This document shows, in pieces, positions 6,931-63,630 of a stretch of 64,000 nucleotides of DNA. A model generated the notes under the pieces. The model did not search any database, was not told the origin of the DNA, and was given only the letters and a program-made list of their open reading frames with translations. Origin of the DNA: an uncultured Acidobacteriota bacterium (lineage in GTDB: Bacteria > Acidobacteriota > Terriglobia > Acidiferrales > UBA7541); the NCBI GenBank assembly GCA_963715555.1, contig OY970253.1, positions 2,375,426 to 2,439,425 of the forward strand. Reading direction: 5' to 3'. The position numbers were made by a program, and so were the translations under genes. The first letter of the stretch is position 1; each line of letters starts with the position of its first letter.

Positions 6931-6964
6931 CTAGGAACGGCCTAGCTCCGCTTCGCGCGGCGGA

Positions 6965-8880: not shown

Positions 8881-8944
8881 TGAATCTTTTCACCAATCTT
8901 TCGCCCCTTGGCCACGACAAACGACGCGGGCGGGGCGTTCCACA

Positions 8945-11149: not shown

Positions 11150-11226
11150 TACAATCGCACGAAAAGCGCCGCGCACTCTCGATTCGTGACTCGACGAGCG
11201 ACCGCGCGGCTGGTCGGAGAATTCGA

Positions 11227-39285: not shown

Positions 39286-39647
39286 AAAACCTCCGTAGCA
39301 AAATCACAAATTACCGCCGCTGCCCGAGCCGGTATGTGACGGTCGTCACGCAAGGCCGTGCTACAGATCACTGTGTGCCGTTCGGCCGGGGACGAGCAGC
39401 ATCTCGTTGGTATCCGCAGGTGGAGGGTAAGTGGGCTCACCAGACGATCCACTCTTGCGAGGTGCAGCTCGAATCGTAAATGAGAATTTCACGGCTCTTG
39501 ATTCGCGCGCTCGATCGTCGCGAATTTTGCGCGCCGGCTCTTACCTCACAGGTTCAAAACCTTCGCGCGGCGTTCTGAGATGGGCTTCCGCGAATTGTGG
39601 AGCGAGGCTTGCGCTCGGCGGTGGCGCATTCTACTCTGTCGGCGCAC

Positions 39648-40878: not shown

Positions 40879-41164
40879 GCGTCGGAGGGGCGCGCCGCCT
40901 CACTGCATCAGACAGGATATCGGCTGTTCAGTTTCGGTTTGGCACCAGCGTTCCGCTTCGGGACTCAAGAGCGTAACGAACAGATCCACTTCCCTACTAC
41001 GTGAATTTCTGCGCCGCTTCAGTTGCGCAGCGTTCTCACGACTAAACTCCACAATGTAAAAACCTTACGCGTGTTTTTTGCGCGGATTAGCATGCTTGCG
41101 GATGGGCAGTGCGGTTACGGTACGAGCGCATCGCTCTGGCATTGATCGTGCCTTTGTGCGGCAC

Positions 41165-46514: not shown

Positions 46515-46941
46515 CGTAAACTCCTTTACCGAAGAATTGCAGCCGCAGCCGTGCCCTGGCCCCGCCGGACATCAACCCCAAGCGTCTATAGAAGGCCAGG
46601 TATTCCCGGTCGTTGAAAATGATGAGTTCGGTGCTAATCATAACAGCGGAGAACCAAGCCAAGCCCATGAAATAGCCGATCATCGAATGAAGGCAGACGG
46701 CACCCAAGAAAACCGGCACCTTCGTCCGGTGATTCCAAATCAGCCACGGCCACGAGACCTGGAAGATGACCGTGGACCATGTGAGGAGGGTTACGATCAC
46801 GTCGGAGTGATAGAAATGATACGCGAATGGCGAAAGATTGAATTCTGAAGACCTGAGTATGTAGTAGATTGCTGTAGTGCTCCCCACTAAAACTGGACAA
46901 CCTGCTTAGGTAGAATCAGGGCCTCCAAACGAGGAGGCAAG

Positions 46942-47229
46942 ATGGGCAGGAAACCACGCGTAGAGCGATCCCCGGAAGAGAAGTGGCAGATCGTGCAGGA
47001 AGGCATCAAGAGCGGGAACGTGTCGGAGACGTGCCGACGGTACGGCATCGCTCCGAATCTGTTCTATCGCTGGAAGGATGAAGCGGAACAGGGAGCCAAG
47101 GCAGCGCTTGGGGGGAGAAGCGCTGCCGCGGCCGAAAGCGAGAAGGACCGCCGCATCCGGCAACTGGAACGCACGCTGGGGCGGAAGTCGCTGGAGATCG
47201 AAATCCTAAAAAACGTCGTGGGGGAGTGA
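46942..47229 (+). CDS. IS3-family transposase OrfA (HTH)
   Basis: MGRKPRVERSPEEKWQIVQEGIKSGNVSETCRRYGIAPNLFYRWKDEAEQG plus a leucine-zipper-like tail. 95 aa. Confidence 0.9.
   Translation: MGRKPRVERSPEEKWQIVQEGIKSGNVSETCRRYGIAPNLFYRWKDEAEQGAKAALGGRSAAAAESEKDRRIRQLERTLGRKSLEIEILKNVVGE
47208..47214 (+). promoter_or_regulatory. Programmed -1 ribosomal frameshift heptamer A AAA AAC (OrfA-OrfB fusion)
   Basis: In the orfA zero frame it reads cuA AAA AAC. orfB is in the -1 frame and overlaps the orfA end. This is the classical IS3-family arrangement. Confidence 0.7.
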
Positions 47230-48101
47230 GCTGCGGTGCCGTTCACTCCCAGGCGCGCGAACTGGTGACGCAGGGCTACACGGCCACGGTAGTGGCGGGG
47301 ACGCTGGCGATCAGTCGGTCGAGCTTGTACTACCGGAAGAAACCGCGAGGCAGCCGAGCCGACCGCACCTACGACGAACAGATCGTGATGGCCTGCGGAG
47401 AGAAGTTGGCCTACGGCTATCGCCGCGTGGCGTGGTGGTTGCAGCGGAAGAAAGGACTGCCGGTGAATCGCAAGCGCGTGCTGCGGGTGATGCGCGAACG
47501 CGGGCTGCTGGTGCGCTCGCGGCGCCTGCGTGCGCGGCGCCGGAAAGAGTGGGGGCGCGTGGAAGCCAGCCGGCCCAATGAAATCTGGCAATCGGACATG
47601 ACCAAAATCTGGGCTGGTCCAGCGGTGGGTTGGGCCTACTTGGTCTGCGTGATCGACTGCTGCACGCGAGAGATCGTGGGCTGGAATCTCTCGCACCGCT
47701 GCCGGACCGAAGACGCGCTGGCAGCGGTGGAACAAGCAGTGCTGGCACGGCTGCCCGAGGGCAGCCGCGAAGCGAGCGTGACGCTCACCACGGACAACGG
47801 CACGCAGTTTACCTCGTCGCGCTTCCTGGAAACGCTGGGGCGGCTGGGCATCACGCACCGGCGGACGGCCTATCATCACCCGGAGGGCAACAGCTACATC
47901 GAACGGTTCCATCGCAGCTTGAAGGAAGAGGAAGTCTGGACGGCCGAGTATCGCAGCCTGCAGGAAGCGCGCACCAGCATCGCTCGTTGGATCGAGGAGT
48001 ACAATCACGACCGGCCTCACCGCGGAGTCCAAAATCGCACTCCGCACGAGGCCTTCTTGGCTTTTGCAACTGACCTAAACTCGGAGCCCCTGATCGTCTA
48101 A
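47226..48101 (+). CDS. IS3-family transposase OrfB (DDE/rve integrase core)
   Basis: PNEIWQSDMTKIW...VIDCCTREIVGW...TDNGTQFTS...YHHPEGNSYIERFHRSLKEE. It is probably expressed as an OrfAB frameshift fusion. Confidence 0.9.
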   Translation: MSCGAVHSQARELVTQGYTATVVAGTLAISRSSLYYRKKPRGSRADRTYDEQIVMACGEKLAYGYRRVAWWLQRKKGLPVNRKRVLRVMRERGLLVRSRRLRARRRKEWGRVEASRPNEIWQSDMTKIWAGPAVGWAYLVCVIDCCTREIVGWNLSHRCRTEDALAAVEQAVLARLPEGSREASVTLTTDNGTQFTSSRFLETLGRLGITHRRTAYHHPEGNSYIERFHRSLKEEEVWTAEYRSLQEARTSIARWIEEYNHDRPHRGVQNRTPHEAFLAFATDLNSEPLIV

Positions 48102-49013
48102 ATTAGCGGGGAGCACTACAAAGTTGTCTCCGCCATCAAGAAGGAACGGATTGCGCTGGAAGAGCGACCAAGTAAAAACGTAGAAGAGGATCGTCGAAAT
48201 CCTGGTTCTGTATCCCAGCGTAAAGGCGATTGTCACCAAAAAGCCCAAGTAGAAGATGGCCGCTTGGTAGATCGGAGATGACAGCAGCATGTAAAGAGAG
48301 AAGTTGCGTTGGGAGCGCATGAGCGCCCAAAATAGGCCGAATGGGACGACACCGTTATTGCCCCAGAGGTATCCTCGCTGTTCGATGTGCTGCGCGTAGT
48401 AGGCGAGAATAATGCTGCCGTAGCAAATCCGTATGAGCGAAAGTCCGATCAACCTCTGCCTCACGCTAGCTACGGCCTTGAATTCCGTTAGCCGATTCTG
48501 CCATTTTTGAAGCATATTTTGCTCCGCCTAATTCCTCGGCGGCAGATAGGGCGTTACCCATTCTGCGTGCTGCCAGTCGATGCTAGAAAATGCAACCTCA
48601 GTCTTTGCGCCCTTGACGTTGCGCTGCGTGAAACGTGGAAATACGACGGTTGAAACTCCGAGCTGAATCTTGTCGAAAGCAACCTGCGGGTACACGATTT
48701 CCAGCGTGGCCAATGCAGTTCGCCTCATTACCGTCATGTCAACTGGGTCAACGTCACTGGGTAGCTCCGGTTTGAAATATCTCTTGCCGTCCTTGGTGAG
48801 CATCGCTCGCGGATCGTCCGGCAGCTTGTTAATGAAGCTCATCAGCGCGTTGGACAGCGCGATCTCGACGTGGAATAGGGGGGTGAGGCGATGCTGCCGT
48901 ACCGCGCCTATGAGCGTGTCAGATACGTCGAGCCAGTTGGTCGTAATAACGTGCCCGGACTGCGGGTCTTTGTAGCTTACCCTAGCCAGCAGGGCATAGT
49001 CCCGGTCAATCGG

Positions 49014-50284
49014 TGTCTTGGCCCAATAATTGTGTCACCCCTTAATGGCCCAGTGAAAATGTCACCCTATGAACCGGGAGACATTTCGGTTGAGTCAGAA
49101 AGAGTTGCAACGAGTGGCTGTGATTTCATCCTGCAGCAAGGGAACTCTGACGTGTGCCAGGGCTGCGGAGCTGCTCGCTCTAACGCCTCGGCATATCAAA
49201 CGTCTCAAAGCGCGCTATCGGCAAGGCGGCGCAGCGGCCCTGGCACACGTCCGCCGCGACCGTCCCAGTCCGCGCCGTCTCCCCGATCCCCTGCGCACCC
49301 GCATCCTCGAACTGGCCCGCACGCGCTACGCGGGCTTCAACGATCATCATCTCCACGAGAAGCTCTGTGAGGTCGAAGGCCTTTCTCTGGGCCGCGAAAC
49401 TCTCCGCCGTCTTCTCCGCAGCGCCGGGATCGGTTCGCCCCGCAAACGACGCGCTCCCACTCATCGCCAGCGCCGTTTGCCTCGCGCCCGCGAAGGCGAA
49501 ATGCTTCTGCTCGACGCCAGCCTGCACCGCTGGCTCGAAGATCGCGGCTCCGAACTCGCCCTGCTCGGCTTCCTCGACGATGCCACCCGCAAAGTCCTGG
49601 TCGCCCAGTTCTTCCCCACCGAAGACGCGCGCGGCTATTTCCGCCTGCTCCATCGCTTGCTGCGCCGTTACGGCGTGCCCCTCAGCTTGTACGGCGATCG
49701 CCACAGCATTTTCGTCCGCAATGACGATCACTGGTCGACCGAAGAGCAACTCGCCGGCAAACGCCAGCCCACTCAGTTCGGCCGCGCCCTGGCCCAACTC
49801 GGTGTCACCTACATCGCTGCCCGCAGCCCCCAAGCCAAAGGTCGCATCGAACGCCTCTGGGGCACTTTTCAGGATCGCCTCACCAGCGAACTGCGCCTGG
49901 CCGGCGCCTCCGATATCGCCACAGCCAATCAGGTCCTGCGCCGCTTTCTTCCCGACTACAACCGCCGCTTTGCCCGCGCCCCGCGCCAGACCGAAAAAGC
50001 CTGGCGTCTGGCTCCTCAGGATCTCACCCGCATCTGCTGCTTCCTGCACGAACGCGCCGTCGGCAACGACAACGTCGTGCAATGGGCGGGACGCCGCTTC
50101 CAAATCCCGCCCCAACCACAACGCTTTAGCTTTGCCGGAGCCAAGGTTCACCTCTACGAATCGCTCGACGGAGACGTGACCATTTACCACGGACCAAACA
50201 AACTCCACCACCTCGGTGGTTAACTTCTCAGGGCGTGACATTTTCATCGGGCCATTAGGGTGACATTTTCACGTTGCTATAACA
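49014..50284 (+). mobile_element. ISNCY-family (IS1202-group-like) insertion sequence, 1271 bp, flanked by a 16-bp direct repeat
   Basis: The direct repeat AGTCCCGGTCAATCGG lies at 48998-49013 and 50285-50300. Imperfect terminal IRs are TGTCTTGGCCCAATAATTGTGTCACCC and the reverse complement of TGTTATAGCAACGTGAAAATGTCACCC. Internal GTGAAAATGTCAC subrepeats lie near both ends. Confidence 0.85.
49069..50223 (+). CDS. ISNCY-family transposase (HTH plus rve DDE domain)
   Basis: LSQKELQRVAVISSCSKGTLTCARAAELLALTPRHIKRLKARYRQGGAAALAHVRRDRPSPRRL matches the characteristic N-terminus of ISNCY/IS1202-type transposases as I remember it. DDE-region motifs are DASLHRW...LLGFLDDATR and SPQAKGRIERLWGTFQDRL. 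Confidence 0.85.
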   Translation: MNRETFRLSQKELQRVAVISSCSKGTLTCARAAELLALTPRHIKRLKARYRQGGAAALAHVRRDRPSPRRLPDPLRTRILELARTRYAGFNDHHLHEKLCEVEGLSLGRETLRRLLRSAGIGSPRKRRAPTHRQRRLPRAREGEMLLLDASLHRWLEDRGSELALLGFLDDATRKVLVAQFFPTEDARGYFRLLHRLLRRYGVPLSLYGDRHSIFVRNDDHWSTEEQLAGKRQPTQFGRALAQLGVTYIAARSPQAKGRIERLWGTFQDRLTSELRLAGASDIATANQVLRRFLPDYNRRFARAPRQTEKAWRLAPQDLTRICCFLHERAVGNDNVVQWAGRRFQIPPQPQRFSFAGAKVHLYESLDGDVTIYHGPNKLHHLGG

Positions 50285-50544
50285 AGTCCCGGTCAATCGG
50301 CGTCGGAGCGAAGAAACTCCAATTCTGCGCGAAGTAGGGGCTTACGTACCGTGCCAACGGGTTGACGATCCGTAACTTCAGCGGACTTGTCGGCATGTTC
50401 GATAGTTGTATGAGCGAGAAGTGTCCGGCCATAAGCAAACTGCCGAGTATGCAGGTCGCCCACCACAGTGCGTTCGTTCGCCGTTCCGTTCGTTGCTCCG
50501 CCGTCATAAGCCCCTCTTTCCTTGCGGTTTTCGGTTGTTTTTGG

Positions 50545-50934
50545 TCAGTTGTCAAACGTGTTTTGCGCGATCTGTGACATCTGCTGGGCGGTCAACTTTG
50601 TGTCATATAGTCCGGCGTTAGCGGCACCACCGGCAGCGACCAGTACGGTTAGTTCGGCATACTCTGTAACAACCGCAGCTTCTTCTTCTTCTTCATAATA
50701 TTCCTGCAACTGCAAGGCCAGACTGGCTACGGCGGTTACCGCCGCGACTGTTGCCGCGACATCGCCGACAACGTCTGTGTTCGGCGTGACGGCCGCCACC
50801 AAACCCGAATGCCGGATGGCGCTCAACGGCGTGAATTGATTCCCGGCTAGAACCGACGATGCCAGCCCGAGTGTGAGAACTCCAACCACGAGCAGGACCG
50901 TGAAACGTACAGCGAACTGCTTTGCTGTTTGCAT
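50545..50934 (-). CDS. Secreted hypothetical protein, candidate cargo/precursor of the SdpA/SdpB-type system
   Basis: ATG at 50934 lies 9 nt after GAGGAG. It has a Sec-type signal peptide (MQTAKQFAVRFTVLLVVGVLTLGLASSVLA/GNQ). The Ala/Val/Thr-rich mature region of about 100 aa carries a YYEEEEEAAVV acidic patch. The stop overlaps the SdpA-like start by 11 nt. No family recognised. Confidence 0.55.
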   Translation of the reverse strand: MQTAKQFAVRFTVLLVVGVLTLGLASSVLAGNQFTPLSAIRHSGLVAAVTPNTDVVGDVAATVAAVTAVASLALQLQEYYEEEEEAAVVTEYAELTVLVAAGGAANAGLYDTKLTAQQMSQIAQNTFDN

Positions 50935-51563: not shown

Positions 51564-51639
51564 ACACACGATCATGCTGAATTTACGGCTTCCGCCATCG
51601 CCAATGGTGGCGGCCGTGGGCGCTCCGGGCGAGCGCGTG

Positions 51640-52141
51640 ATTGCTCTGTGACAACCGAATCCGCGCGCAGCTTCTCCACCGTTTCCGCCGAGTCCGCGGC
51701 CGCGTTCGCCGCGATGCGCGTGGAGTCGATCGCCACGTGCCCCAGCTTGCCCATCCCCAGCGAGCGCGCCAGCTCCACCACTTGCGTGAATACCTCGTTC
51801 ATCGCTCGCCCGTGCTTCTTGCGGAACTCGTTCAGCGCCCAATAGTCCGGCTGCGCTCCGCCCGCCAGATAGCGGAACGCCAGGTCTTCGCGGATGCGCT
51901 GCTCCAGCCGCCGCGAACTGGTGATGCCCAGCGCGTACGCGTACAGCCACACCTTCAGCAGCAGCCCCGGATGGTACGCCCAATGCCCCTCTTCGCTGTA
52001 CCCGGCTTGCAAAACGGTCAAATCCAGCTTCTCCACCGCCCGATGCACGAAAAAACACAGATGCTCTCCCCCCAATACGTCCCGCACGCTCGGCGGCAGC
52101 AAGTAGGCCTGCTCCGGGTTGTACTCGTAAAAGTTCGGCAT
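51640..52141 (-). pseudogene. IS1182/IS5-type transposase fragment (N-terminal roughly 165 aa only)
   Basis: MPNFYEYNPEQAYLLPPSVRDVLGGEHLCFFVHRAVEKLDL...GYHPGLLLKVWLYAYALGITSSRRLEQRIREDLAFRYLAGG...IDSTRIAANAA matches the N-terminal half of IS1182-family transposases. The DDE catalytic half is absent. The lower boundary is approximate. Confidence 0.75.
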
Positions 52142-52500
52142 CGCGCGCATCCTCCTGCGCGCAGTATAAACGCCACGCCCCAATCCGCCCAGTTGCCACA
52201 CAGACTCTTTAGCCCCCTGGCGCCACCCAATTCAATTTCGCAGCCGATCGCTGTGATGTAGACTCTCTCACTGCAACTGGTACAAAAACTCGGGCTGGTC
52301 AGCGGAGGGTTCGGGCGTTTGAAGGTTGGATCCGCTGTGACTTTTGTTGAAGGGTTAGGAGAGAAAGGACCGCAAGCCAGCACCGTTCGTATCCGTCCTA
52401 GGCAACGAACCGGGCAATCCGCTGCTGAGTCAGTTGCGTCCCCAGTTGCTTAGGTCAGAGGGAGAGCCACGCCTGCCAGGTGTTATCGATGAGAAATTGC

Positions 52501-53424
52501 ATGATCCTGTTTAACTTTCCTAGTCATGAGCCCGTCGCGCGGGAGCTGCGAACGATTCCAACCGTGCAAGCGAGCCAATTTTCTGTGGCCCGCTACGACA
52601 ATCAAGAAATGCATATTAGGGTCGAAGGGCGTGTTTCCGGCGAACATTGCGTAATATTGGGGACCATTGCTCCTCCGGATGAATGCCTGCTTGCGGTAAC
52701 GTTGCTCGCCCAAACGCTCAAGAAAGAGGGCGCGATTAAGATCACGGCATTGCTCCCCTATCTCGCGTATACACGACAAGACAAGGACAAACAGGGAGAG
52801 AGCCTAGGAGCGGCGTGGGTTGGCACTCTTCTGAAGAGTTCTGGGATCAATCGGGTAGTCACCGTCGATGTGCATAGCGATCGCGACAAACAGCTATTCT
52901 CGATTCCCTTGATGTCTCTGCCTACCGATGCCCTCTTTGCTCAGGCTATTCAAGACCACCGGTTACAAGGTGCAACGATAGTTGCACCGGATAACGGGGC
53001 AATTGCCCGCTGCGAGGCCGTGAAGCGCGCAGCTGGGATGCCCATCGGTGAAATACCATACTTTGAGAAAAAGCGGACGGACCAAGGGATCATTCATCAC
53101 GGTCCGGTCGGCACTGTCGGGGCTAAGGTGGTGATGATCGATGACATGATCGATACGGGTGGAACCCTAATCTCCGCGTGCGAAAACTTAAGAGCTGCTG
53201 GCGTTCGGGAGATTTTCATACTAGTGACTCACGGGCTCTTCACCGGAACAAACTGGACGCGATTGTGGTCTCTGGGTGTGAAACACATTTTTTGTACCGA
53301 CACCGTTCCCATCCGAGCAGAGATGGAGACCGCGAATGTTACTGTCCTTTCGATTGCGCCGCTGGTCCGAGAGACTTTCATGAACTATGGCGATGCCGAG
53401 CCAATTGCTGTGCGAGGGATATAG
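52501..53424 (+). CDS. Ribose-phosphate pyrophosphokinase (PRPP synthetase) family protein
   Basis: LLPYLAYTRQDK (PRPP synthetase signature region) and VVMIDDMIDTGGTL (ribose-5-P / PRTase loop). About 307 aa. The start is uncertain (ATG at 52501 or 52489, GTG at 52480). Confidence 0.8.
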   Translation: MILFNFPSHEPVARELRTIPTVQASQFSVARYDNQEMHIRVEGRVSGEHCVILGTIAPPDECLLAVTLLAQTLKKEGAIKITALLPYLAYTRQDKDKQGESLGAAWVGTLLKSSGINRVVTVDVHSDRDKQLFSIPLMSLPTDALFAQAIQDHRLQGATIVAPDNGAIARCEAVKRAAGMPIGEIPYFEKKRTDQGIIHHGPVGTVGAKVVMIDDMIDTGGTLISACENLRAAGVREIFILVTHGLFTGTNWTRLWSLGVKHIFCTDTVPIRAEMETANVTVLSIAPLVRETFMNYGDAEPIAVRGI

Positions 53425-53427
53425 TCT

Positions 53428-54519
53428 TTGACGGTTGGGACTCAATCCTTGCTTTCGATCGACGGCTCGCTCGGCGAAGGAGGCGGCCAAGTTCTGAGGA
53501 CTTCCCTGGCACTAGCTTTGATTACCCGCAGGCCGTTCGCCCTGCGGAACATTCGCAGCCGGCGGCCAAAACCTGGGCTGATGCCGCAGCATTTGAAGGC
53601 TGTGGATGCGGCCCGCGAAATCGGACGAGCGAAGGTGGAAGGCGATCGGCTCGGCTCGCAGCTTCTGTTATTTGAGCCGAGCAGTATCGCCAGCGGTGAT
53701 TTCTATTTCGATATCGGCACAGCTGGATCCACATCACTTGTACTCCAGACCATCTTAATCCCACTAAGTTTCGCTAGCGCGAGTTCCCACGTCACGGTAG
53801 TTGGAGGCACGCACGTACCGTGGAGTCCATGCTTCCACTTTCTAGAATGGCATTGGCTCCGCTACATGAAAAAGATAGGCTTCGAGATTCGATTAGAACT
53901 CGGCGCCGCTGGCTTTTACCCGCGTGGAGGTGGACGCGTTGTCGCTATGGTCCGTCCAATACCCCAGCTCTCGCCGCTGCACCTGACCAGTCGCGGAACC
54001 TTAAAGCGAATCCGGGGCATTTCTGCGGTCGCCAATCTGGACAGCAGCATTGCTGAAAGGCAAAAGTCACAGGCGATCAAGCGGCTCAGCGATCTGTCGG
54101 AGGCGGTTGAAATCAGCGTCATCCGCCTCGCCTCTTCGTCGAAAGGATCGCTCCTGTTGCTCCTTGCAGAATTTGAAAAGTCTCAGTGTTGTTTCTATAG
54201 CCTCGGTGCACGCGGAAAATCTGCCGAAAAGGTCGCCGACCAAGCGGTTCACGAACTACTTGAATTCTTGGCCACCGACGGGGCCGTCGATCACTATTTG
54301 GCCGATCAACTGGTATTGCCTTTGGCCCTCGCGCCAGAAACCTCTGAGATTCGAACGTCAAAGCTGACACCTCACCTCACAACCAACATCGAGATCATCC
54401 GAATGTTTCTTCCGGCAAGTATTGATATCGAGGGGGCCATGGGGCAGCCGGCATCGATTCGCATAGGATCCGCCGAATCCGTGAATATACGGAAAGCGAC
54501 TCTCACAGGTGGAAGTTGA
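53428..54519 (+). CDS. rtcA: RNA 3'-terminal phosphate cyclase
   Basis: GSLGEGGGQVLRTSLALALITRRPFALRNIRSRRPKPGLMPQHL is the RtcA N-terminal signature. DQLVLPLALA...LTPHLTTNIEII contains the nucleotidylated His region. The TTG start is 3 nt after the prs-like stop, with GAGGGA 8 nt upstream. Confidence 0.85.
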   Translation: MTVGTQSLLSIDGSLGEGGGQVLRTSLALALITRRPFALRNIRSRRPKPGLMPQHLKAVDAAREIGRAKVEGDRLGSQLLLFEPSSIASGDFYFDIGTAGSTSLVLQTILIPLSFASASSHVTVVGGTHVPWSPCFHFLEWHWLRYMKKIGFEIRLELGAAGFYPRGGGRVVAMVRPIPQLSPLHLTSRGTLKRIRGISAVANLDSSIAERQKSQAIKRLSDLSEAVEISVIRLASSSKGSLLLLLAEFEKSQCCFYSLGARGKSAEKVADQAVHELLEFLATDGAVDHYLADQLVLPLALAPETSEIRTSKLTPHLTTNIEIIRMFLPASIDIEGAMGQPASIRIGSAESVNIRKATLTGGS

Positions 54520-55595
54520 AGGTTCATCGCGCGCATACGAGCAACTCGGCTCCGAAGGATGCGAGCCAAGAGCATCTCCAGCTCTTGCTGCTCGGAGATT
54601 GCATGTTGGGGCGGTTAGTGAATGAGGTTCTTGAGAGTAAAGAGCCGGAATATCCTTGGGCAGACACCCTCCCGATTCTTCGCGGTGCTGACTGGCGGAT
54701 CTGTAATCTCGAATGTGTTATCTCCGACCGAGGAACACCGTGGTCGGAATATCCCAAGGCATTTCACTTTCGATCCTCGGCAAAAAACATTGCCGTGCTT
54801 GAGGCGGCCAACATCAATGCCGTCTCGTTGGCGAATAACCACGTTCTCGACTACGGATACGAGGCTCTGAGTGAGATGCTGGAGATATTGGACCGGGCCG
54901 GAGTCGTTCACAGCGGAGCGGGGTTGAACTATGCTCAGGCATCACGTGTTGCCACGTCGGTGGTCCGGGGGCGAAAGCTCGGACTTCTCGCATTCACAGA
55001 CAACGAACCGGACTGGGAAGCGACCCCAAACCGGCCGGGGATTTTTTATGTGCCAACAAACCTCGGCGATTGGCGGACGACCAACCTACTGGAAAGCGTT
55101 CGGGAAAGTAGCAGCGTGGTGGATTTACTGATTGTGTCTGCCCATTGGGGTTCGAATTGGGGCTACGATCCGCCTAAGGAGCATATCTCTTTTGCTCACG
55201 CGCTAATCGAAGCGGGCGCGGACATCGTATTCGGCCATTCCAGTCACGTCTTCCGAGGGGTCGAATTCTACAAAGGCCGACCGATTCTATATGGTGCCGG
55301 CAATTTTATAGACGACTACGCCGTCGACCAGATCGAGCGCAATGACCAATCGTTCATCTACGTAATCGAGGTGACTGACAAACTTTCCGCACGTATGTTC
55401 CTGTACCCGACCCTAATTCGTGGCTGCCACGCTTCTCTGGCCGAGGGAGTCCAAGCTTCCCGCATCGCCGACAAAATGGGCGAGCTTTGTGCTGCCCTGC
55501 ACACGCGAGCGACTTGGAATCAGGCGCGAGAGCGCATAGAGATCGAGCGCTTCGACAGTACGACACCAAGCGCCTTTTCGTCTTCTGAACCCTGA
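54516..55595 (+). CDS. CapA-family (PGA_cap) metallophosphoesterase-fold protein
   Basis: LLLLGDCMLGR, AVSLANNHVLDYGYEAL and SAHWGSNW are CapA/PGA_cap family motifs. The TTG start overlaps the rtcA stop (TTGA). The start is uncertain. Confidence 0.75.
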   Translation: MKVHRAHTSNSAPKDASQEHLQLLLLGDCMLGRLVNEVLESKEPEYPWADTLPILRGADWRICNLECVISDRGTPWSEYPKAFHFRSSAKNIAVLEAANINAVSLANNHVLDYGYEALSEMLEILDRAGVVHSGAGLNYAQASRVATSVVRGRKLGLLAFTDNEPDWEATPNRPGIFYVPTNLGDWRTTNLLESVRESSSVVDLLIVSAHWGSNWGYDPPKEHISFAHALIEAGADIVFGHSSHVFRGVEFYKGRPILYGAGNFIDDYAVDQIERNDQSFIYVIEVTDKLSARMFLYPTLIRGCHASLAEGVQASRIADKMGELCAALHTRATWNQARERIEIERFDSTTPSAFSSSEP

Positions 55596-55798
55596 CTTTG
55601 AGGCGATCGGGATGAACTGGCACAAAAAGAAATAGCCGTTGTCGCTCAATTCACGAATGCCGTAATGGAAAGCGTGCCGGCGAGCCCTCGAAGGCATGAT
55701 TACGCTCTACCGCGTGCGCTGCCCTGAAAATCACCTGCCCTGAATGTGAATGAACCGTTTTGTCCCCATAGAAAAGATCTGTAGTGCTCCCCGCTAAT

Positions 55799-56674
55799 TT
55801 AGACGATCAGGGGCTCCGAGTTTAGGTCAGTTGCAAAAGCCAAGAAGGCCTCGTGCGGAGTGCGATTTTGGACTCCGCGGTGAGGCCGGTCGTGATTGTA
55901 CTCCTCGATCCAACGAGCGATGCTGGTGCGCGCTTCCTCCAGGCTGCGATACTCGGCCGTCCAGACTTCCTCTTCCTTCAAGCTGCGATGGAACCGTTCG
56001 ATGTAGCTGTTGCCCTCCGGGTGATGATAGGCCGTCCGCCGGTGCGTGATGCCCAGCCGCCCCAGCGTTTCCAGGAAGCGCGACGAGGTAAACTGCGTGC
56101 CGTTGTCCGTGGTGAGCGTCACGCTCGCTTCGCGGCTGCCCTCGGGCAGCCGTGCCAGCACTGCTTGTTCCACCGCTGCCAGCGCGTCTTCGGTCCGGCA
56201 GCGGTGCGAGAGATTCCAGCCCACGATCTCTCGCGTGCAGCAGTCGATCACGCAGACCAAGTAGGCCCAACCCACCGCTGGACCAGCCCAGATTTTGGTC
56301 ATGTCCGATTGCCAGATTTCATTGGGCCGGCTGGCTTCCACGCGCCCCCACTCTTTCCGGCGCCGCGCACGCAGGCGCCGCGAGCGCACCAGCAGCCCGC
56401 GTTCGCGCATCACCCGCAGCACGCGCTTGCGATTCACCGGCAGTCCTTTCTTCCGCTGCAACCACCACGCCACGCGGCGATAGCCGTAGGCCAACTTCTC
56501 TCCGCAGGCCATCACGATCTGTTCGTCGTAGGTGCGGTCGGCTCGGCTGCCTCGCGGTTTCTTCCGGTAGTACAAGCTCGACCGACTGATCGCCAGCGTC
56601 CCCGCCACTACCGTGGCCGTGTAGCCCTGCGTCACCAGTTCGCGCGCCTGGGAGTGAACGGCACCGCAGCTCAC
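55799..56674 (-). CDS. IS3-family transposase OrfB
   Basis: 291-aa product, identical to the copy 1 OrfB except for one residue. Confidence 0.9.
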   Translation of the reverse strand: MSCGAVHSQARELVTQGYTATVVAGTLAISRSSLYYRKKPRGSRADRTYDEQIVMACGEKLAYGYRRVAWWLQRKKGLPVNRKRVLRVMRERGLLVRSRRLRARRRKEWGRVEASRPNEIWQSDMTKIWAGPAVGWAYLVCVIDCCTREIVGWNLSHRCRTEDALAAVEQAVLARLPEGSREASVTLTTDNGTQFTSSRFLETLGRLGITHRRTAYHHPEGNSYIERFHRSLKEEEVWTAEYRSLEEARTSIARWIEEYNHDRPHRGVQNRTPHEAFLAFATDLNSEPLIV

Positions 56675-56958
56675 TCCCCCACGACGTTTTTTAGGATTTC
56701 GATCTCCAGCGACTTCCGCCCCAGCGTGCGTTCCAGTTGCCGGATGCGGCGGTCCTTCTCGCTTTCGGCCGCGGCAGCGCTTCTCCCCCCAAGCGCTGCC
56801 TTGGCTCCCTGTTCCGCTTCATCCTTCCAGCGATAGAACAGATTCGGAGCGATGCCGTACCGTCGGCACGTCTCCGACACGTTCCCGCTCTTGATGCCTT
56901 CCTGCACGATCTGCCACTTCTCTTCCGGGGATCGCTCTACGCGTGGTTTCCTGCCCAT
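56671..56958 (-). CDS. IS3-family transposase OrfA
   Basis: 95-aa product, identical to the copy 1 OrfA. The frameshift heptamer lies at 56686-56692 (minus strand). Confidence 0.9.
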   Translation of the reverse strand: MGRKPRVERSPEEKWQIVQEGIKSGNVSETCRRYGIAPNLFYRWKDEAEQGAKAALGGRSAAAAESEKDRRIRQLERTLGRKSLEIEILKNVVGE

Positions 56959-57227
56959 CTTGCCTCCTCGTTTGGAGGCCCTGATTCTACCTAAGCAGGT
57001 TGTCCAGTTTTAGTGGGGAGCACTACAGATCTGTGACATGCAGCGCGTCGAAAAATGACGAGGGTTGTGATCCCAGTCACGCGCGACCGTGATGGTTCTT
57101 ACAGTTAGATTCGGCAGACCGCTTTAGCCTCCTGTAAGTTGTAATTGGAGCGACGCGAGGAACAACCGTCCAGAAATCAGACTCTCGAAAGCGGCGAGGA
57201 ATTCGAAACATGGAGGAACTATATAAA

Positions 57228-58109
57228 ATGGTTCGCTTCAAAAACATCTTATACGCCACGGATTTTTCGCCGGCGTCGCAAATGGCTCTCCGGTATGCCC
57301 TGCCGCTTGCGCGTAAGTATGCTTCGCACATTTTTGTGGTCCACGTAGTGTCGCCGACGCCGAAATCGGCAATCTCTTCAGGACATGCGCCGCCGATCGG
57401 CACAGAAAGCGACCGAGAGATCATGCAATCAATGGCGCAAATGGAGCCACAGCTGAAGGAATTCCGCCATGAATTCATCATTCGAAGGGGCGACATTTGG
57501 AAAGAAATGGCGGCGATTATAGAAGAGAAGTTGATCAGCTTGGTAGTAATCGGGACCCACGGGCGCTCTGGAGCTACGAAAGTCATAATGGGTTCCGTGG
57601 CCGAAGAAATATTCAGGAGGTCTCGCTGCCCAGTGCTCACAGTCGGACCAAATGTGTGCGGTGAGCCGGACGATCTCTCCGACATGCGCACTATTCTATG
57701 CCCCATTGATTTCCGCCCTGAATCATTTGCCGCTATTCCGTATGCAACATCGCTAGCCGAACAGAATCAGGCGCGCTTGTATTTGCTCTATGTTGCCGAT
57801 GGAGCTGCGGGCGAACTTCCCGATGCTTCACTTAAGGCTGCTCTACGCGCGCTGATCCCATCAGAAGCGGAGCTTTGGTGCGAGCCAAAAACCTTCATTG
57901 AGTCCGGCAACCCGGCCAACAAAATCGTTGAATCGGCCGCAGAACTTGGTGTGGACGTGATTGTCCTTGCTGTGAAATCTGCCGAGCAGTTGGCTACCAA
58001 ACCGCCTCATCTTGCCTTGGAAACCGCCTACAAGGTGGTCACCCAGGCGATCTGTCCTGTGCTCACGGTTCGACGTCGGCTTACCTTGGGTAATGTGGAG
58101 GCTCCATGA
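57228..58109 (+). CDS. Tandem universal stress protein (two UspA domains)
   Basis: Two repeats of the Usp pattern are present (ILYATDFS...VVIGTHGRSGATKVIMGSVAEEIFRRSRCPVLTV, and ILCPIDF...VIVLAV...ICPVLTV). ATG at 57228 lies 10 nt after GGAGGA. Confidence 0.85.
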   Translation: MVRFKNILYATDFSPASQMALRYALPLARKYASHIFVVHVVSPTPKSAISSGHAPPIGTESDREIMQSMAQMEPQLKEFRHEFIIRRGDIWKEMAAIIEEKLISLVVIGTHGRSGATKVIMGSVAEEIFRRSRCPVLTVGPNVCGEPDDLSDMRTILCPIDFRPESFAAIPYATSLAEQNQARLYLLYVADGAAGELPDASLKAALRALIPSEAELWCEPKTFIESGNPANKIVESAAELGVDVIVLAVKSAEQLATKPPHLALETAYKVVTQAICPVLTVRRRLTLGNVEAP

Positions 58110-59027
58110 AAAGAGTTAAGGCGCGAGTTCGACGGAAGGCAGTGGGGTGTCGCAGCATTCGTCGCAATCGTCGCGGGGCCCCGTCTTACCAGCCGAGGCT
58201 GCAGAAGTCTAATGACGTATGGGAGTCCATAACATAAGGAAATTGGCGGGTTTCGATGGCATTCGGTGCTCCGACCTTTTCGCGCCCGGTGTTGTCTCGT
58301 CATTTTTGCGCGCTGCGGCGGAACCAGCCCCCATAGCCTTCGCAAACTACAAGTTGCCAGGTATATCAACCGCAGTGGAGTTTGAACGTCGCTCTTTGAT
58401 TTCTTGACGCACGGGGAGGAGGCTGTGGACGACGCAGTCATCCGCAGCTGCTCGTCGGATCGTGGCGCGCAGGGACATCATTAGATCCGTTTCGGAACCG
58501 GAATTCATTCAGTTTGGGGGGCTTTTAGGCTTGATCTTGCGCAAAATGGGCTCGGCGGTAGTTAACGTGATGTTTCCGATGATGACCAGTGATCGAGATC
58601 ACCGCTTAGAGCACCAAATACGTAGTAAATAGGAGGCGTCGAAAGGCGGAGACTGCGACAGGGATCTCCAAGGCTATTCGGTAGCGCGAAGAAGCACAGA
58701 GGTTCCTCGGGGTTACTTCAACTAGAAGAAACCCAGATGCAGAAATACGCTTTTCGGCAGGAGGGGGCGGCCAGGTGCGAAGCCTGATCGCGCCTTGAAG
58801 TTTCGACGCACCGGCCCGCTACTGTCGGAAGCACTTCGCAACCGGCCACTGCCTCCTCGCAGTTGTCGCGTAATCGCCAGGTGCGATGAAGCACGTTTGG
58901 ATGTAAGCCCGCTCCGCAAAGTACACTGAAGTTCAGTTTTTCCGTGCACGGATCCCGCGCTGCTATCGTCAAACCAAAGTTCCATCACTTCAGCAGCGCG
59001 TCTCGCATTTCCGGCGCAGAAGCTACT

Positions 59028-59762
59028 ATGAAACAAGCCTGCTTCCGATTTTACGCGCAGTTGAATGACTTCCTTCCGCCCGAGCAGAGGAAGCAGGTTG
59101 TAACGTACCGTTTTTATGTCAGTGGGTCTGTCAAAGACATAATCGAAGCCATTGGGGTGCCGCATACGGAGGTTGACTTCATCTTGGTGAATGGCGTGCC
59201 AGTTGAGTTCGGCTACCAGGTAAAAAATGACGATTATGTGAGTGTCTTTCCCAAGTTCCGATCCATCGACTTGGGACCGGTCCCGCATCTTCAGCCGCCT
59301 GCAATTGCTGGGAGGCGTTTCGTGGCCGATGGGCATTTGGGGCGCCTAGCAGCGTACCTTCGGATGTTAGGATTCGATACGCTTTATCGGAGCGATTGCC
59401 AGGATGACGAACTTGCTCGCCTCTCTTCGAGCGAAAATCGAATCTTGCTGACCAGAGATCGTGGACTGCTAAAGCGCAATGAGGTCAGTCGCGCTTATTA
59501 TGTGCGCGCGACAGAGCCAGCCGACCAGCTGGCTGAAGTGTTCCGCGAGTTCGACCTTGGCCCAATGATCGATCCATTCTGCCGGTGTATGCACTGCAAC
59601 GCCTTGCTGCATTCTGTCGCGAAGAAATCCATTCAGCATCGGCTCTTGCCGGAAACGGTGAAGTACTTTGAGGAATTCTACGTATGCGCCGGCTGCCAAC
59701 GCGTTTACTGGAAGGGCTCCCACTACCGCCGGATGATGCGTCTTATCGAAGCTGTGATGTGA
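59028..59762 (+). CDS. Mut7-C RNase (PIN-like) domain protein with N-terminal ubiquitin-like beta-grasp domain
   Basis: N-terminus FRFYAQLNDFLP...GSVKDIIEAIGVPHTEVDFILVNG (Ub-Mut7C type). FVADGHLGRLAAYLRMLGFDT...LLTRDRGLL is the Mut7-C core. The C-terminus has a zinc ribbon (CRCMHCN...CAGCQRVYWKGSH). Confidence 0.8.
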   Translation: MKQACFRFYAQLNDFLPPEQRKQVVTYRFYVSGSVKDIIEAIGVPHTEVDFILVNGVPVEFGYQVKNDDYVSVFPKFRSIDLGPVPHLQPPAIAGRRFVADGHLGRLAAYLRMLGFDTLYRSDCQDDELARLSSSENRILLTRDRGLLKRNEVSRAYYVRATEPADQLAEVFREFDLGPMIDPFCRCMHCNALLHSVAKKSIQHRLLPETVKYFEEFYVCAGCQRVYWKGSHYRRMMRLIEAVM

Positions 59763-60345: not shown

Positions 60346-60489
60346 AACCGGACCTCCTTCAAAGGCGGGTTCTACATTTCCCCGGGGCGTCCACCAATAT
60401 AGATCACGCGCAGATATAAACAGTGATTTCAATCACACTTGCTCATCTATACGGGAGCTGCAATCTGCACGAATCGTTTCCTTGCCAGA

Positions 60490-62964
60490 TCACAACGCTC
60501 CCACCGCTTCCTCGATCCTCTTGGCAATCGCGATGTAGTCGTCGCCCTGAAGTCGTAAAGGGGCACCGAATACAACCTCCACGCGTCCCGGTCGGGGCCA
60601 GTGTGCGTGCCGGTGAAGCACCTTCTCCACACCGTGCAACCGAACGGGCACGACGGGGATTCTCAGCCGGTCAGCAATCAGCCCGATGCCAGGCTGGAAG
60701 GGGTGGATCTCCCCGGCCTCTGTACGCTCGCCTTCCGGGAAGTACAAGATGGACCAGTTGTCGCTGATTAAGTCGCCGAGGTATCGGAGGGATTGGCGAG
60801 CACCAATTTCGGTTTGAGGAAGCGGAAAGGCGTTAAAGAGCAATGCAATCAAATAATAAAGAACACTATCGCTAAGCCATTGCAAGCGCGTGTGGCGCTC
60901 CGGCCAGAAGTGGGCGTCGAAGTATTCCTTCCACATTGCGACGGCCGTACGGAAACGAAAACGCTTAGGCACCGCGGACAGAATCAGCGGCGTATCAAGA
61001 TGACTCTGGTGGTTCGAAGCAAAGATGACAGGACCTTCCAGAGAGGCCAAATGCTCCAGCCCCCCGATGTGAGCATGTGCGAACAGGCGAGTGAGTGGGA
61101 GCCATAATCCACTCAGCGCCGCGTTTCGAATGAGCCGTGCCGGCCGCAGGCGACTCCATGAGGGAGTGTCTGGAGAACCCGGTGGGACGCTGACTTCGGC
61201 CAGCGCGGACACGGTGCGTGCGCCTGTCAATAGCGATTCATCGATACTGGTATCGAGTTGTCGCTCCAAGTCGACGAGGAGTTCTACTCGATCGAGAGAA
61301 CTCAAGCCGAGTTCATCGAGTGTGGTTTCCGGAGTTATGTTCCGATGCGGAGCATACTTCTCAAGAAGCTCGATCACTCTGTCTTTTCCAGGGGCCTGTA
61401 CCGTTGAGGTGCCACTCTCCACCCATGACTGGATCTCGCGGTGCTTTATCTTTTGCGTTCCTTCCGTGCGGGGCAGCCGGTCGCCCGGCCAAATCGAGAC
61501 CGTGCGAATTTTCTGATGATCCTCAAGCTGCAGATTGGCACGGCGAACGATTTCGTCCGCATTAGCTCCGCTTTCAAGCGCCAAGACGGCGTGCACGCGG
61601 TCCTTACCGACCACGGCTGATTCGCGCACACCCGGCGTGCGATTGAGCACATTCTCGACATCTTCAGGGAACACTTTCAGACCTTCCGGCGTGACGATCA
61701 TTTCCTTTTTGCGTCCCCGAATTGTCAGATTGCCGGCCTGGTCAAAAGATCCGATATCGCCAGTACGAAGCCATCCGTTCTCGAACGCCGCGCTGGTTTC
61801 GTCCGGAGCGTGGTAGTACCCAGGCGTAACACTTTTGCCTCGCACGAGGACTTCGCCGTCTGACGCAATCTTTACTTCCACACCGGCAATCGGCTTGCCA
61901 ACCGTACCCTTAGCGATGGCGAAGGGATTGTTGAAGGTGACCACAGGCGCCGTCTCCGTGAGGCCGTAACCCTGAATGACTGCGAATCCTAGGCCGGACC
62001 AATACTCCTCATCATCCTTTGTAAGCGGAGCCGCTCCGACGATGAAAGCCCAAAATCTCCATCCGAGTAACGCGTGAACGCGGCGGTAGCGCCACCAGCG
62101 GAAGATCCAATGGCTCGAAGGCGGAAGCCGGTCGGCAGTCTCCCGAAACTGCGAGAGAAAGTGCTTACGGAGCAATTCGAGGATCTTAGGCACACCGACG
62201 ACTACCGAAACTTTCCGCGTCCGGATCTGCCGCGTGATTTCGTGTGGGCTGTACCCGTGCATGAAAACGGCAGTGCCCGGAATAAGCGGCACGAGGAACA
62301 TCGTGACGATTTGGCCAAACATATGACTCAACGGAATCAAACATAGGAAGCGCAACGGGAGCACGGGCAGGAACCATTTGCGGTACGTGCGAACAATCTG
62401 CTCAGGAGACTCCATATCAGCCAGAATGTTTCGGTGGGTGATCATCACCCCCTTGGGCTCGCCCGTGGCACCGGACGTAAAGACGATCTCGACAAGATCA
62501 TCTTGCTCAATTTGGACCGGCGGAGTCTCATACCCCGCGGTGGTCCATTCAAGATCGCGGAGACGACTGCAAGGCGGTAGATCTGTCTCGGAGGGTAGAC
62601 GAACTTCTTCTCCGAACAGGATCATTCGGGCATTCACGATTGCTTGGACGCGGCATAGAAAATTGGCTGATGTTCGGTAGTCAATCGGTACAACGACCAC
62701 ACCCGCGAGGACGCAGCCCCAAAAAGCGGTGACCCACTCTGGGCGATTCTCAGACCAGATGATGACCTTGTCGCCGCGGTGGATGTTGTGTTCGGCCAGC
62801 CGAGCCGCGAAATGACGTGCGGCGAGGCCTACTTGCGCGTATGTGTATTTCCATCTGCGGTAGCCGTCGTCGTATTGAAGGAAATCGACTGATGATTCGG
62901 AGAACTCGGCAAAAAAATCCACGAGGGTGCAGCGCGGTACCGGGATTGATTTGCCCTTGGACAT
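60490..62964 (-). CDS. Tri-domain fusion: AMP-dependent acyl ligase, carrier protein (PP-binding) and lysophospholipid acyltransferase (PlsC/LPLAT)
   Basis: The adenylation core motif is FTSGATGEPKGVMITHRN. The carrier-domain motif is LDELGLSSLDRVELL. The acyltransferase motifs are NHQSHLD (HX4D) and FPEGERT. 824 aa. Confidence 0.8.
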   Translation of the reverse strand: MSKGKSIPVPRCTLVDFFAEFSESSVDFLQYDDGYRRWKYTYAQVGLAARHFAARLAEHNIHRGDKVIIWSENRPEWVTAFWGCVLAGVVVVPIDYRTSANFLCRVQAIVNARMILFGEEVRLPSETDLPPCSRLRDLEWTTAGYETPPVQIEQDDLVEIVFTSGATGEPKGVMITHRNILADMESPEQIVRTYRKWFLPVLPLRFLCLIPLSHMFGQIVTMFLVPLIPGTAVFMHGYSPHEITRQIRTRKVSVVVGVPKILELLRKHFLSQFRETADRLPPSSHWIFRWWRYRRVHALLGWRFWAFIVGAAPLTKDDEEYWSGLGFAVIQGYGLTETAPVVTFNNPFAIAKGTVGKPIAGVEVKIASDGEVLVRGKSVTPGYYHAPDETSAAFENGWLRTGDIGSFDQAGNLTIRGRKKEMIVTPEGLKVFPEDVENVLNRTPGVRESAVVGKDRVHAVLALESGANADEIVRRANLQLEDHQKIRTVSIWPGDRLPRTEGTQKIKHREIQSWVESGTSTVQAPGKDRVIELLEKYAPHRNITPETTLDELGLSSLDRVELLVDLERQLDTSIDESLLTGARTVSALAEVSVPPGSPDTPSWSRLRPARLIRNAALSGLWLPLTRLFAHAHIGGLEHLASLEGPVIFASNHQSHLDTPLILSAVPKRFRFRTAVAMWKEYFDAHFWPERHTRLQWLSDSVLYYLIALLFNAFPLPQTEIGARQSLRYLGDLISDNWSILYFPEGERTEAGEIHPFQPGIGLIADRLRIPVVPVRLHGVEKVLHRHAHWPRPGRVEVVFGAPLRLQGDDYIAIAKRIEEAVGAL

Positions 62965-63180
62965 GAGGCTATCTCAGCGCCAACAGGCGACAAGCGGTCG
63001 AGCCACTTGGCGGCATCGTGGCCTTTGCTGCACGCACGTTGCACTTCAGCAGCGGCGCTAGGTACAGAATTTCACCGTGTCCGAGTTGCCGCAGTGACCA
63101 AGATCACTGCAGACTGTACTCGAAACAGCAAATGTTATGCTTAAGCGGTAAGAAGAGTCTCGAAAGAAGGATTTCGGAGC

Positions 63181-63630
63181 ATGGCTGCGCGTGCCTCAAA
63201 TGCTCGCAGTTTGGGAATCGACCTTGCATCCAAGAGAGAAGAAGAACTATTCAAATGGTTTCTGGCGTGCCTCCTTTTTGGAAAGCCGATCCAATCCGCA
63301 GTTGCAGAGCGAGCCTTCCGCGAACTCATGCAGGCGCGCCTTACGAGTCCCGCGGCCGTTACGCGCGCCGGTTGGGACAAGCTCGTGTCGCTCTTGGATC
63401 GGGCCCATTACGTCAGGTATGATTTTTCCACTGCCACCAAGCTGCTCGACGTTTGCGAAGAACTGAAGCGCCGATACGGCACTCTAACCAATCTGCTAAC
63501 GCAAGCGAAGACTCCAGCCGAACTTTCGCGCAGGCTGCAGGAATTTAAGCATATCGGGCCAGTGACGGCGCGCATCTTTCTCCGCGAGATCCGGCCGCTT
63601 TGGTATTCCGGTCCGTCGCAGGACAAGTGA
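63181..63630 (+). CDS. Hypothetical HhH-motif protein (HhH-GPD-superfamily-like)
   Basis: LQEFKHIGPVTARIFLREI resembles a helix-hairpin-helix DNA-binding motif. 149 aa. The family assignment is tentative. Confidence 0.45.
   Translation: MAARASNARSLGIDLASKREEELFKWFLACLLFGKPIQSAVAERAFRELMQARLTSPAAVTRAGWDKLVSLLDRAHYVRYDFSTATKLLDVCEELKRRYGTLTNLLTQAKTPAELSRRLQEFKHIGPVTARIFLREIRPLWYSGPSQDK

Follow-up and report, generated by a model that had tools for sequence, protein, structure and literature searches.

The 64,000-nucleotide window analysed here (assembly GCA_963715555.1, contig OY970253.1, positions 2,375,426 to 2,439,425, from an uncultured Terriglobia bacterium of the UBA7541 lineage) carries, at 52501-55595, an operon of three forward-strand genes for a Prs-like protein (PRSL), an RNA 3'-terminal phosphate cyclase (RtcA) and a PGA_cap/CapA-family protein. 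Judged by its conservation in metagenomic relatives, this trio is a local, lineage-specific and non-autonomous variant of a wider conserved module that combines enzymes of phosphoribosyl pyrophosphate (PRPP) metabolism with Rtc enzymes. The constant core of that module appears to be a phosphoribosyltransferase (PRTase), PRSL and a dienelactone hydrolase-type (DLH) protein, because fusions and compact operons of these three recur outside the genomic island in which the window operon lies; PGA_cap and one Rtc set would be recurrent additions.

The operon and its three proteins

The operon consists of the following genes.

52501-53424, forward strand: PRSL, divergent PRPP-synthase-family diphosphokinase, 307 aa (Pfam, NCBIfam)
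53428-54519, forward strand: rtcA, RNA 3'-terminal phosphate cyclase, 363 aa, TTG start (TIGR03399, NF003246)
54516-55595, forward strand: PGA_cap/CapA-family protein, predicted cytosolic metalloenzyme, 359 aa (PF09587)

The open reading frame (ORF) listing and a reading of the sequence both give three intact and coupled ORFs, as a preliminary description of this stretch had stated. The TAG stop of PRSL (53422-53424) lies 3 nt from the rtcA TTG at 53428, and the TGA stop of rtcA (54517-54519) overlaps the PGA_cap TTG at 54516 as TTGA. Both junctions had been described in this way, and only one detail needs correction: a Shine-Dalgarno sequence had been placed within the 3-nt gap, whereas the Shine-Dalgarno-like GAGGGA (53413-53418) is inside the 3' end of the PRSL ORF, 8-9 nt ahead of the rtcA TTG. 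An alternative, longer start for PRSL exists at GTG 52480 and is the less likely one, because a family-invariant Met and the 307-aa product in the source annotation match ATG 52501. For PGA_cap, the source annotation uses an internal ATG that gives 330 aa, so that 54516-54605 is the region in question. The TTG overlapping the rtcA stop is the more plausible true start, since the internal ATG would delete a conserved GDC metal-site motif, which aligns with the D11 region of the epimerase MslH, and since homologues align from residue 5. Ratios of dN/dS of ~0.1 for PRSL, ~0.12 for rtcA and ~0.1 for PGA_cap show strong purifying selection; between the window and its sister strains just 0-4 codons differ per gene, too few for a selection test. 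Scans for sigma-70 promoters and intrinsic terminators around the operon performed no better than on shuffled sequence.

PRSL has the Pfam domains Pribosyltran_N, Pribosyl_synth and Pribosyltran, and in NCBIfam it passes only the broad subfamily model TIGR01251 (222 bits). It falls below every Prs equivalog cutoff, the best such score being 176 bits against a cutoff of 438, and its best match among solved Prs structures in the PDB reaches 136 bits. Aligned with twelve canonical Prs proteins from at least four phyla (Actinomycetota, Bacillota, Pseudomonadota, Campylobacterota, a Melioribacteraceae metagenome-assembled genome and one unclassified metagenome-assembled genome), the PRSL family is 25-32% identical to them; in the same alignment the canonical proteins share 42-81% identity among themselves (median 47%), and the PRSL family 61-89%. 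This family comparison bears out the earlier proposal that the gene is not the housekeeping prs, and on these alignments and profiles we assign PRSL to a distinct clade of Prs paralogues. In an exhaustive search covering 1.84 billion representatives, the clade emerges as a graded set of ~100 clusters scoring 160-374 bits, higher than canonical Prs; its named members come from Acidobacteriaceae, Armatimonadota and Nitrosomonas. Its taxonomic breadth is drawn from metagenomes and cluster names; a scan of reference genomes with the full PRSL family alignment returned only canonical Prs, swamped by the generic DDMIDTG. The 0.72 Mb searched contained no canonical prs, a result that is uninformative, as the source contig's share is only 64 kb of 3.78 Mb.

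The preliminary description had noted a full-length protein with an RQDK-type region and an intact DDMIDTGGT loop, and the alignment confirms these catalytic motifs. RQD, the D(L/V)H histidine (DVH in the window), the K-x-R flexible loop with K197 and R199, and DDMIDTGGT are all present, and the catalytic positions are invariant across the family. Elsewhere the family departs from canonical Prs: ES(V/I)RG is replaced by VSG and QIQGFF by RDKQLF, the loop after RQD is shortened, and the C-terminal ESxSxLF is lost in favour of tails of the R(M/I)TA(R/S)G type. The arginine of ES(V/I)RG, ESxSxLF and the other replaced motifs form what we take, from B. subtilis Prs structures, to be the ADP/phosphate regulatory site. 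Because the catalytic residues are kept and these motifs are replaced, we infer that PRSL is an active enzyme that is differently regulated, having lost the class-I ADP/phosphate site.

RtcA scores 382 bits with TIGR03399 (cutoff 250) and 380 bits with NF003246 (cutoff 352), contains the insert domain RTC_insert (PF05189), and matches E. coli RtcA over its full length. The catalytic His309 of the E. coli enzyme aligns with H316 in the motif TPHLTTN, in agreement with the catalytic His region recognised earlier. By these profile and residue matches the rtcA product is evidently a bona fide RNA 3'-phosphate cyclase. Neither RtcB nor Archease is encoded within the 64-kb window. A sigma-54 activator at 41078-42589, the only one examined, is of the NtrC type, and its receiver domain in place of a CARF-type N-terminus rules it out as RtcR, in keeping with the remark that neither rtcB nor rtcR is found here.

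The third protein was rightly placed in the CapA/PGA_cap family, with 260 bits to PF09587 against a gathering cutoff of 27. Its only solved relatives are the MslH epimerases. The AlphaFold2 model has a mean pLDDT of 80, and its top Foldseek match is MslH (TM 0.74), followed by YmdB-type 2',3'-cyclic-nucleotide phosphodiesterases, 5'-nucleotidases and purple acid phosphatases. Invariant putative metal ligands are D28, E66, N108, H109, H210, H241 and H244, and the counterparts of MslH D11 and H295 are conserved as well. The sequence shows neither a hydrophobic segment nor an anchor at the N-terminus, and no PgsB/CapB or PgsC/CapC occurs among the called neighbours of the loci examined. The predicted fold makes it plausible that the protein works as a phosphoesterase on the ends of RNA or nucleotides.

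Conservation of the operon and the wider module

A metagenome scan with a trimmed PRSL alignment gave 80 family loci at 61-82% protein identity, which were annotated with seed proteins. RtcA is the commonest gene directly 3' of PRSL (19 of the 49 loci with enough sequence), and RtcA and then PGA_cap come next in 12 of the 29 loci that extend 2.5 kb or more downstream. The gap between PRSL and RtcA is at most 6 nt in eight of ten trio loci, and the RtcA/PGA_cap junction is overlapping or short in most of them. Such constant order and close packing across many independent loci put the trio far beyond chance, and the adjacency to which the preliminary description had drawn attention proves to be conserved. 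Upstream of PRSL, relatives have a small gene and a fusion of a hibernation factor (HPF, S30AE) with a cold-shock domain (CSD), in 26 of 60 loci; the intact HPF-CSD fusion (213 aa), encoded by the leader gene of the operon, is a conserved protein of an unusual kind. Downstream, they have a conserved gene that we call hyp173 and then an orphan type-I PRTase, which comes either as a protein of 229 aa or as one of 482 aa with a C-terminal DLH-type domain (a PRTase::DLH fusion, PRT482). Where 4 kb or more of downstream sequence was available (23 loci), a PRTase was present in 15 and an Rtc enzyme in 10.

The Rtc component varies between loci. Runs of PRTase, Archease and RtcB occur in loci without RtcA (L002, L103-L107 and L125), and RtcA and RtcB were never found in one locus among 88 family loci plus the window. 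In a sublineage from several soils (L150, L152, L156 and L142), PRSL and the PRTase are intact, RtcA is multiply frameshifted and carries a deletion (at about 10848-11713 in L150), and PGA_cap is frameshifted. The two therefore decay together, and PRSL, intact beside their pseudogenes, is independent of both. The earlier suggestion that the three enzymes act in one pathway is not supported, at least as an obligate pathway, given this decay with PRSL intact and the replacement of RtcA by Archease-RtcB elsewhere; its companion statement, that the trio fits no known pathway, still stands, and we likewise find none that accounts for the combination.

Outside the island, PRTase::PRSL fusions are found in six representatives of 50% clusters (P0256, P0283, P0293, P0304, P0313 and P0326), and the one that was checked occurs on three independent contigs and has a DLH gene after it. 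At 51% identity, L179 has PRTase, PRSL and DLH with 4-nt overlaps, and L178, from Armatimonadota, has the same triad. L180 (48%, 6032-11351) extends it to a single overlapping operon of PRTase, PRSL, DLH, Archease and RtcB. This operon adjoins a phage-type integrase, a HipA-like gene and DUF932, a setting which suggests that the module can travel on an integrative element. In L173 (52%), PGA_cap, PRTase, a PRSL::Archease fusion (9226-10542) and RtcB form one operon with a DLH gene alongside; the fusion is given little weight alone, because it is seen on a single contig. The Nitrosomonas member of the clade has only a PRTase nearby, and other members stand alone. One of these, a 45%-identical protein at 7671-8912 of L181, is encoded beside a gene for a small acid-soluble spore protein, which hints at a link to dormancy in a spore-former too. 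No PRTase or DLH partner is encoded within the 64-kb window itself.

Stress island, shared operator and local damage

In relatives, the operon is part of an island with genes for Usp, HSP20, CBS, Cpn60, Lon, BON, OsmC, Dps, a YbaK-like deacylase and Mut7-C. In the window, the genes that Pfam identifies on the right of the operon are Usp, Mut7-C, Dps and an AMP-binding/acyltransferase gene. The features flanking the operon are these.

46872-48120, forward strand: twin copy of the IS3 element, inverted (repeat search: 1249 nt, 100% complementary)
51572-52201, reverse strand: DUF772 transposase fragment (Pfam PF05598); HPF-CSD homology starts only at 52283
52283-52453, forward strand: remnant of the HPF(S30AE)-CSD gene, C-terminal ~57 codons (tblastn, 66% identity to residues 162-202 of the L002 protein)
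~55783-57026 (identical repeat 55780-57028), reverse strand: IS3-family element, absent from sister contigs
57210-58109, forward strand: tandem Usp gene (Pfam Usp), native downstream neighbour of PGA_cap
58944-59762, forward strand: Ub-like and Mut7-C (PIN-like RNase) gene (Pfam), which also adjoins the module in L135 and L139
59833-60432, reverse strand: Dps/ferritin-like gene (Pfam), with a candidate operator at its 5' end
60490-62964, reverse strand: AMP-binding/PP-binding/acyltransferase gene (Pfam), found beyond RtcB in relatives (L001-L004, L103-L106)
63181-63630, forward strand: hyp173-like conserved gene (tblastn, 70% identity), in relatives between PGA_cap and PRTase

K-mer enrichment of upstream regions gave a palindrome, (C/T)(A/T)GTGA-N6-TCAC(A/T)G, of the shape bound by the CRP/FNR family. 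In its strict form, GTGAY-N4-RTCAC, it occurs five times in the window against 0.10 expected, and four of the five sites precede the Usp, Mut7-C, Dps and hyp173-like genes. The candidate CRP/FNR-type operators, for which no strand is assigned, are listed here.

39336-39349: candidate operator, fifth window site
57067-57080: candidate operator, 130 nt upstream of the Usp gene
58589-58602: candidate operator, upstream of the Mut7-C gene
60423-60436: candidate operator, at the 5' end of the Dps/ferritin-like gene
63094-63107: candidate operator, in the divergent region before the hyp173-like gene

Across 0.56 Mb of family loci, GTGAY-N4-RTCAC was found 78 times against 1.9 expected and never inside an annotated coding hit. 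The loci in question are L002 and L089-L168; it stands ahead of the leader genes of PRSL operons in 23 of 44 loci, and it is absent from the non-Terriglobia loci. No gene for a CRP/FNR regulator was seen among the 10 window ORFs scanned (9 of them of 220-503 aa) or the called genes of the looked-up loci, and none for a DosR/DevR-type regulator was identified among the called genes of the loci or the window ORFs scanned. The distribution of the palindrome predicts a CRP/FNR-type stress regulon in Terriglobia, which are abundant, slow-growing soil bacteria. The hyp173 gene is transcribed divergently from the PRTase gene, with the operator between them; the two small conserved proteins of the island, hyp102 and hyp173 (6972-7280 and 10081-10602 in L002; 63181-63630 in the window), belong to no Pfam or NCBIfam family.

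In the strain studied here, the operon has been damaged at its 5' side, where the DUF772 fragment has replaced the 5' part of the HPF-CSD gene together with the native operator and promoter, and no operator site is left upstream of the window operon. On the right, sister contigs that are 99.7% identical (L169-L171) join 55782 to 57027, so that PGA_cap is followed directly by Usp, and because these sister strains have no copy, the IS3 element at ~55783-57026 is a very recent insertion. The preliminary description was correct that the operon is flanked by a transposase fragment and an IS3 copy. However, its use of this accessory placement as an argument fails, given that the IS3 copy is missing in the sisters and that the flanks of the operon are syntenic with those of IS-free relatives. 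The same two observations led us to reject the idea that the operon is the cargo of a composite transposon, since the right IS3 is missing in sisters that have the same genes in place. We take the island to be native and chromosomal and the insertion sequence (IS) elements to be recent arrivals.

The two identical inverted IS3 copies lie 7.7 kb apart and could mediate inversion of the segment between them. From the left IS3 to the operon (48075-48515, 50277-50555 and 49069-50223), there are unrelated gene fragments, one of them with a match to DUF5819, broken by another transposase gene (helix-turn-helix and rve_3); the stretch is heavily scrambled by IS elements. Elsewhere in the window, the transposase-like ORFs of equal length (384 aa) do not form repeats of 400 nt or longer.

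Possible function and relation to known systems

We consider it somewhat more probable than not that the module is a dormancy toolkit, in which a PRPP synthase without its regulatory site feeds salvage by the PRTase(-DLH), while RtcA and PGA_cap (or Archease-RtcB) maintain RNA ends. PRSL, whose residues for the reaction are observed, would be a ribose-5-phosphate diphosphokinase, and we propose that it makes PRPP at low energy charge because the class-I ADP/phosphate allosteric site has been lost. The PRTase(-DLH), its partner in operons and fusions, would use this PRPP to rebuild nucleotides from free bases, though the substrates are presumptive. RtcA would convert RNA 3'-phosphate (and 2'-phosphate) ends to 2',3'-cyclic phosphates on cellular targets that can only be surmised, and PGA_cap, as the least secure step, might be a metal-dependent hydrolase that conditions the phosphate ends of RNA or nucleotides. 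Together, these activities would preserve the translation apparatus in dormancy and restore it afterwards. In Terriglobia, the module follows the hibernation-factor/cold-shock fusion gene in an island whose genes share the CRP/FNR-type operator; in this strain, the transposase fragment has cut the operon from leader gene and operator, and the IS3 element has parted it from Usp.

Several points weigh against this reading. The loss of allosteric control in PRSL is deduced from motifs described for B. subtilis Prs, and the sole characterised structure in the PGA_cap family is a peptide epimerase, which makes the phosphoesterase role a guess. Some members of the PRSL clade are solitary or have no Rtc genes nearby. 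The operon in this strain, separated from its native leader and operator, may be poorly expressed. Finally, the compact operons of PRTase, PRSL, DLH, Archease and RtcB and the PRSL::Archease fusion hint at a mechanistic coupling tighter than that of two parallel functions.

That hint is the starting point for a different view, in which the PRPP enzymes act directly in RNA repair and carry out a new repair chemistry. PRSL would pyrophosphorylate a ribose C1'-OH of damaged RNA, for example at an abasic site or a damaged terminal nucleotide, and the PRTase would re-attach a base; DLH would remove an ester adduct before PGA_cap, RtcA or RtcB/Archease healed the ends and sealed them. The overlapping operons of L180 and L173, the PRTase-Archease-RtcB runs of the Terriglobia island and the RtcA-PRSL gap of at most 6 nt in the window lineage are all as such a scheme would have them, as is the presence nearby of a YbaK-like tRNA deacylase and a hibernation factor. 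No paper in the library searched links archease with PRPP enzymes, which also fits. However, PRSL has the standard ribose-5-phosphate loop DDMIDTGGT and no added RNA-binding domain, its fusion to Archease is on one contig only, and several lineages have PRTase-PRSL-DLH without any Rtc gene. Moreover, PRSL persists where RtcA and PGA_cap decay, and independent but co-regulated functions often share operons. We regard direct action of this kind as unlikely. Its more specific form, in which PRSL, PRTase and DLH with RtcA or RtcB/Archease and PGA_cap perform PRPP-type activation and re-glycosylation, or terminal-nucleotide rebuilding, of damaged tRNA or rRNA, seems to us quite unlikely; if true, it would be chemistry not known for RNA, and it would offer a function for the mycobacterial proteins Rv0571c, Rv0574c and Rv2630-Rv2631.

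PGA_cap could also be unrelated to ribose or RNA and merely co-regulated, acting on a glutamate/glutamine polymer, as proposed for Rv0574c, or on a peptide in the manner of MslH. Its family membership agrees with this, all solved relatives being peptide epimerases, as does its absence from several variants of the module, and Rv0574c has been described as modulating poly-alpha-L-glutamine content (PMC5309233). Against these stand the missing PgsB/PgsC-type partner in every locus examined, the missing N-terminal hydrophobic anchor, the coupling to RtcA, with which PGA_cap also decays, and its position at the head of an L173 operon that ends in RtcB. Such an unrelated function is therefore, in our view, distinctly unlikely.

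The preliminary description had raised, as speculation, sequential action of the trio on a small molecule, namely a (cyclic) phosphorylated ribose, ADP-ribose or an NAD-related compound, possibly in conflict with phages. Tight coupling and co-conservation of the three genes, the non-canonical nature of PRSL, and the cyclic-nucleotide phosphodiesterases among the structural neighbours of PGA_cap would fit, and L180 lies by an integrase and a HipA-like gene and L173 by AbiEii. Yet the three proteins have no PADLOC matches (the PRTases give just a 22-23-bit, fold-level match to ShosT), phage Prs homologues are at most 29% identical to PRSL and no closer than any canonical Prs, and the PRSL family pattern has zero matches in viral contigs. 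RtcA passes the equivalog cutoffs for an RNA cyclase, and it trades places with the RNA enzymes RtcB and Archease; as a unit, the trio can be dispensed with, and the island is chromosomal and consists of stress genes. A role in NAD+ or conflict chemistry thus appears very unlikely. That a housekeeping prs came to lie beside unrelated genes by chance, in an accessory region rich in IS elements, has only the IS elements on both flanks in its favour; it is hardly credible and is refuted by the neighbourhood conserved in order and spacing across loci at 61-82% protein identity, by the distance of PRSL from canonical Prs and by the recent date of the IS3 insertion.

As the fusions and compact operons help to show, PRTases, CapA-like proteins and RtcB/archease of the kinds seen here, together with a previously unnoticed Prs clade, are parts of one recurrent module in several phyla. 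This provides a testable hypothesis, PRPP-driven nucleotide salvage joined to RNA-end repair for surviving and leaving dormancy, for RtcA and for the PRTases, CapA-like protein and RtcB/archease of the mycobacterial dormancy regulon.

Among known systems, class I Prs (B. subtilis, E. coli, M. tuberculosis) shares with PRSL the two-domain fold, RQD, DxH, K-x-R and DDMIDTGGT. PRSL differs in its identity of only 25-32%, in missing the equivalog cutoffs, in its replaced regulatory motifs, and in a genomic context of stress and RNA-repair genes. Phages are reported to use a Prs-like ADP-ribose pyrophosphokinase in NAD+ reconstitution; there, too, a Prs-family enzyme works outside housekeeping and is paired with a phosphoribosyl-type transferase. 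In contrast, PRSL is at most 29% identical to phage Prs and has, by its family-specific pattern, zero viral occurrences, and it is paired with a DLH-bearing type-I PRTase in a chromosomal stress island.

The rtcR-rtcBA system of E. coli and Salmonella is comparable in that the window has a bona fide RtcA and the sister architectures have RtcB and Archease. It is unlike the present module in that the window RtcA has no adjoining RtcB or RtcR, and RtcA and RtcB are mutually exclusive per locus; in addition, the partners here are a Prs paralogue, a PRTase, a DLH hydrolase and PGA_cap, and control is apparently through a CRP/FNR-type operator and not through sigma-54 and RtcR. With CapA/PgsA and the lasso-peptide epimerase MslH, PGA_cap has in common PF09587, the predicted fold and the D11/H295 equivalents. 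Unlike them, it is predicted to be cytosolic, has no PgsB/C or lasso-peptide genes in its neighbourhood, and its gene is either coupled to rtcA or stands first in an operon whose last gene is rtcB.

A further parallel, in gene content, is with the DosR dormancy regulon of M. tuberculosis, which includes the ribosome-associated factor Rv0079, the putative PRTase Rv0571c, the polyglutamate-synthase-like Rv0574c, the RtcB ligase Rv2631 with its neighbour Rv2630, and Usp, CBS (Rv2626c) and alpha-crystallin (HspX) proteins, most of them uncharacterised (PMC5309233). The acidobacterial island likewise has a ribosome factor, an orphan PRTase, a polyglutamate-synthase-like protein, RtcB, Usp, CBS and alpha-crystallin, a likeness at the level of protein kind. 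Rv0571c has the PRTase and DLH architecture, and Rv0574c is assigned to the CapA family. Since Usp, alpha-crystallin, CBS, the hibernation factor, RtcB, the PRTase and PGA_cap share the GTGA-N6-TCAC operator in the island, these co-clustered stress genes would form a dormancy or stress regulon resembling that of DosR. The differences are also clear: DosR genes lie in nine scattered blocks and those of the island are clustered and partly fused, the operator of the island is CRP/FNR-like and not a DosR box, and the island adds a Prs paralogue and RtcA, both outside the DosR list of that review (PMC5309233).

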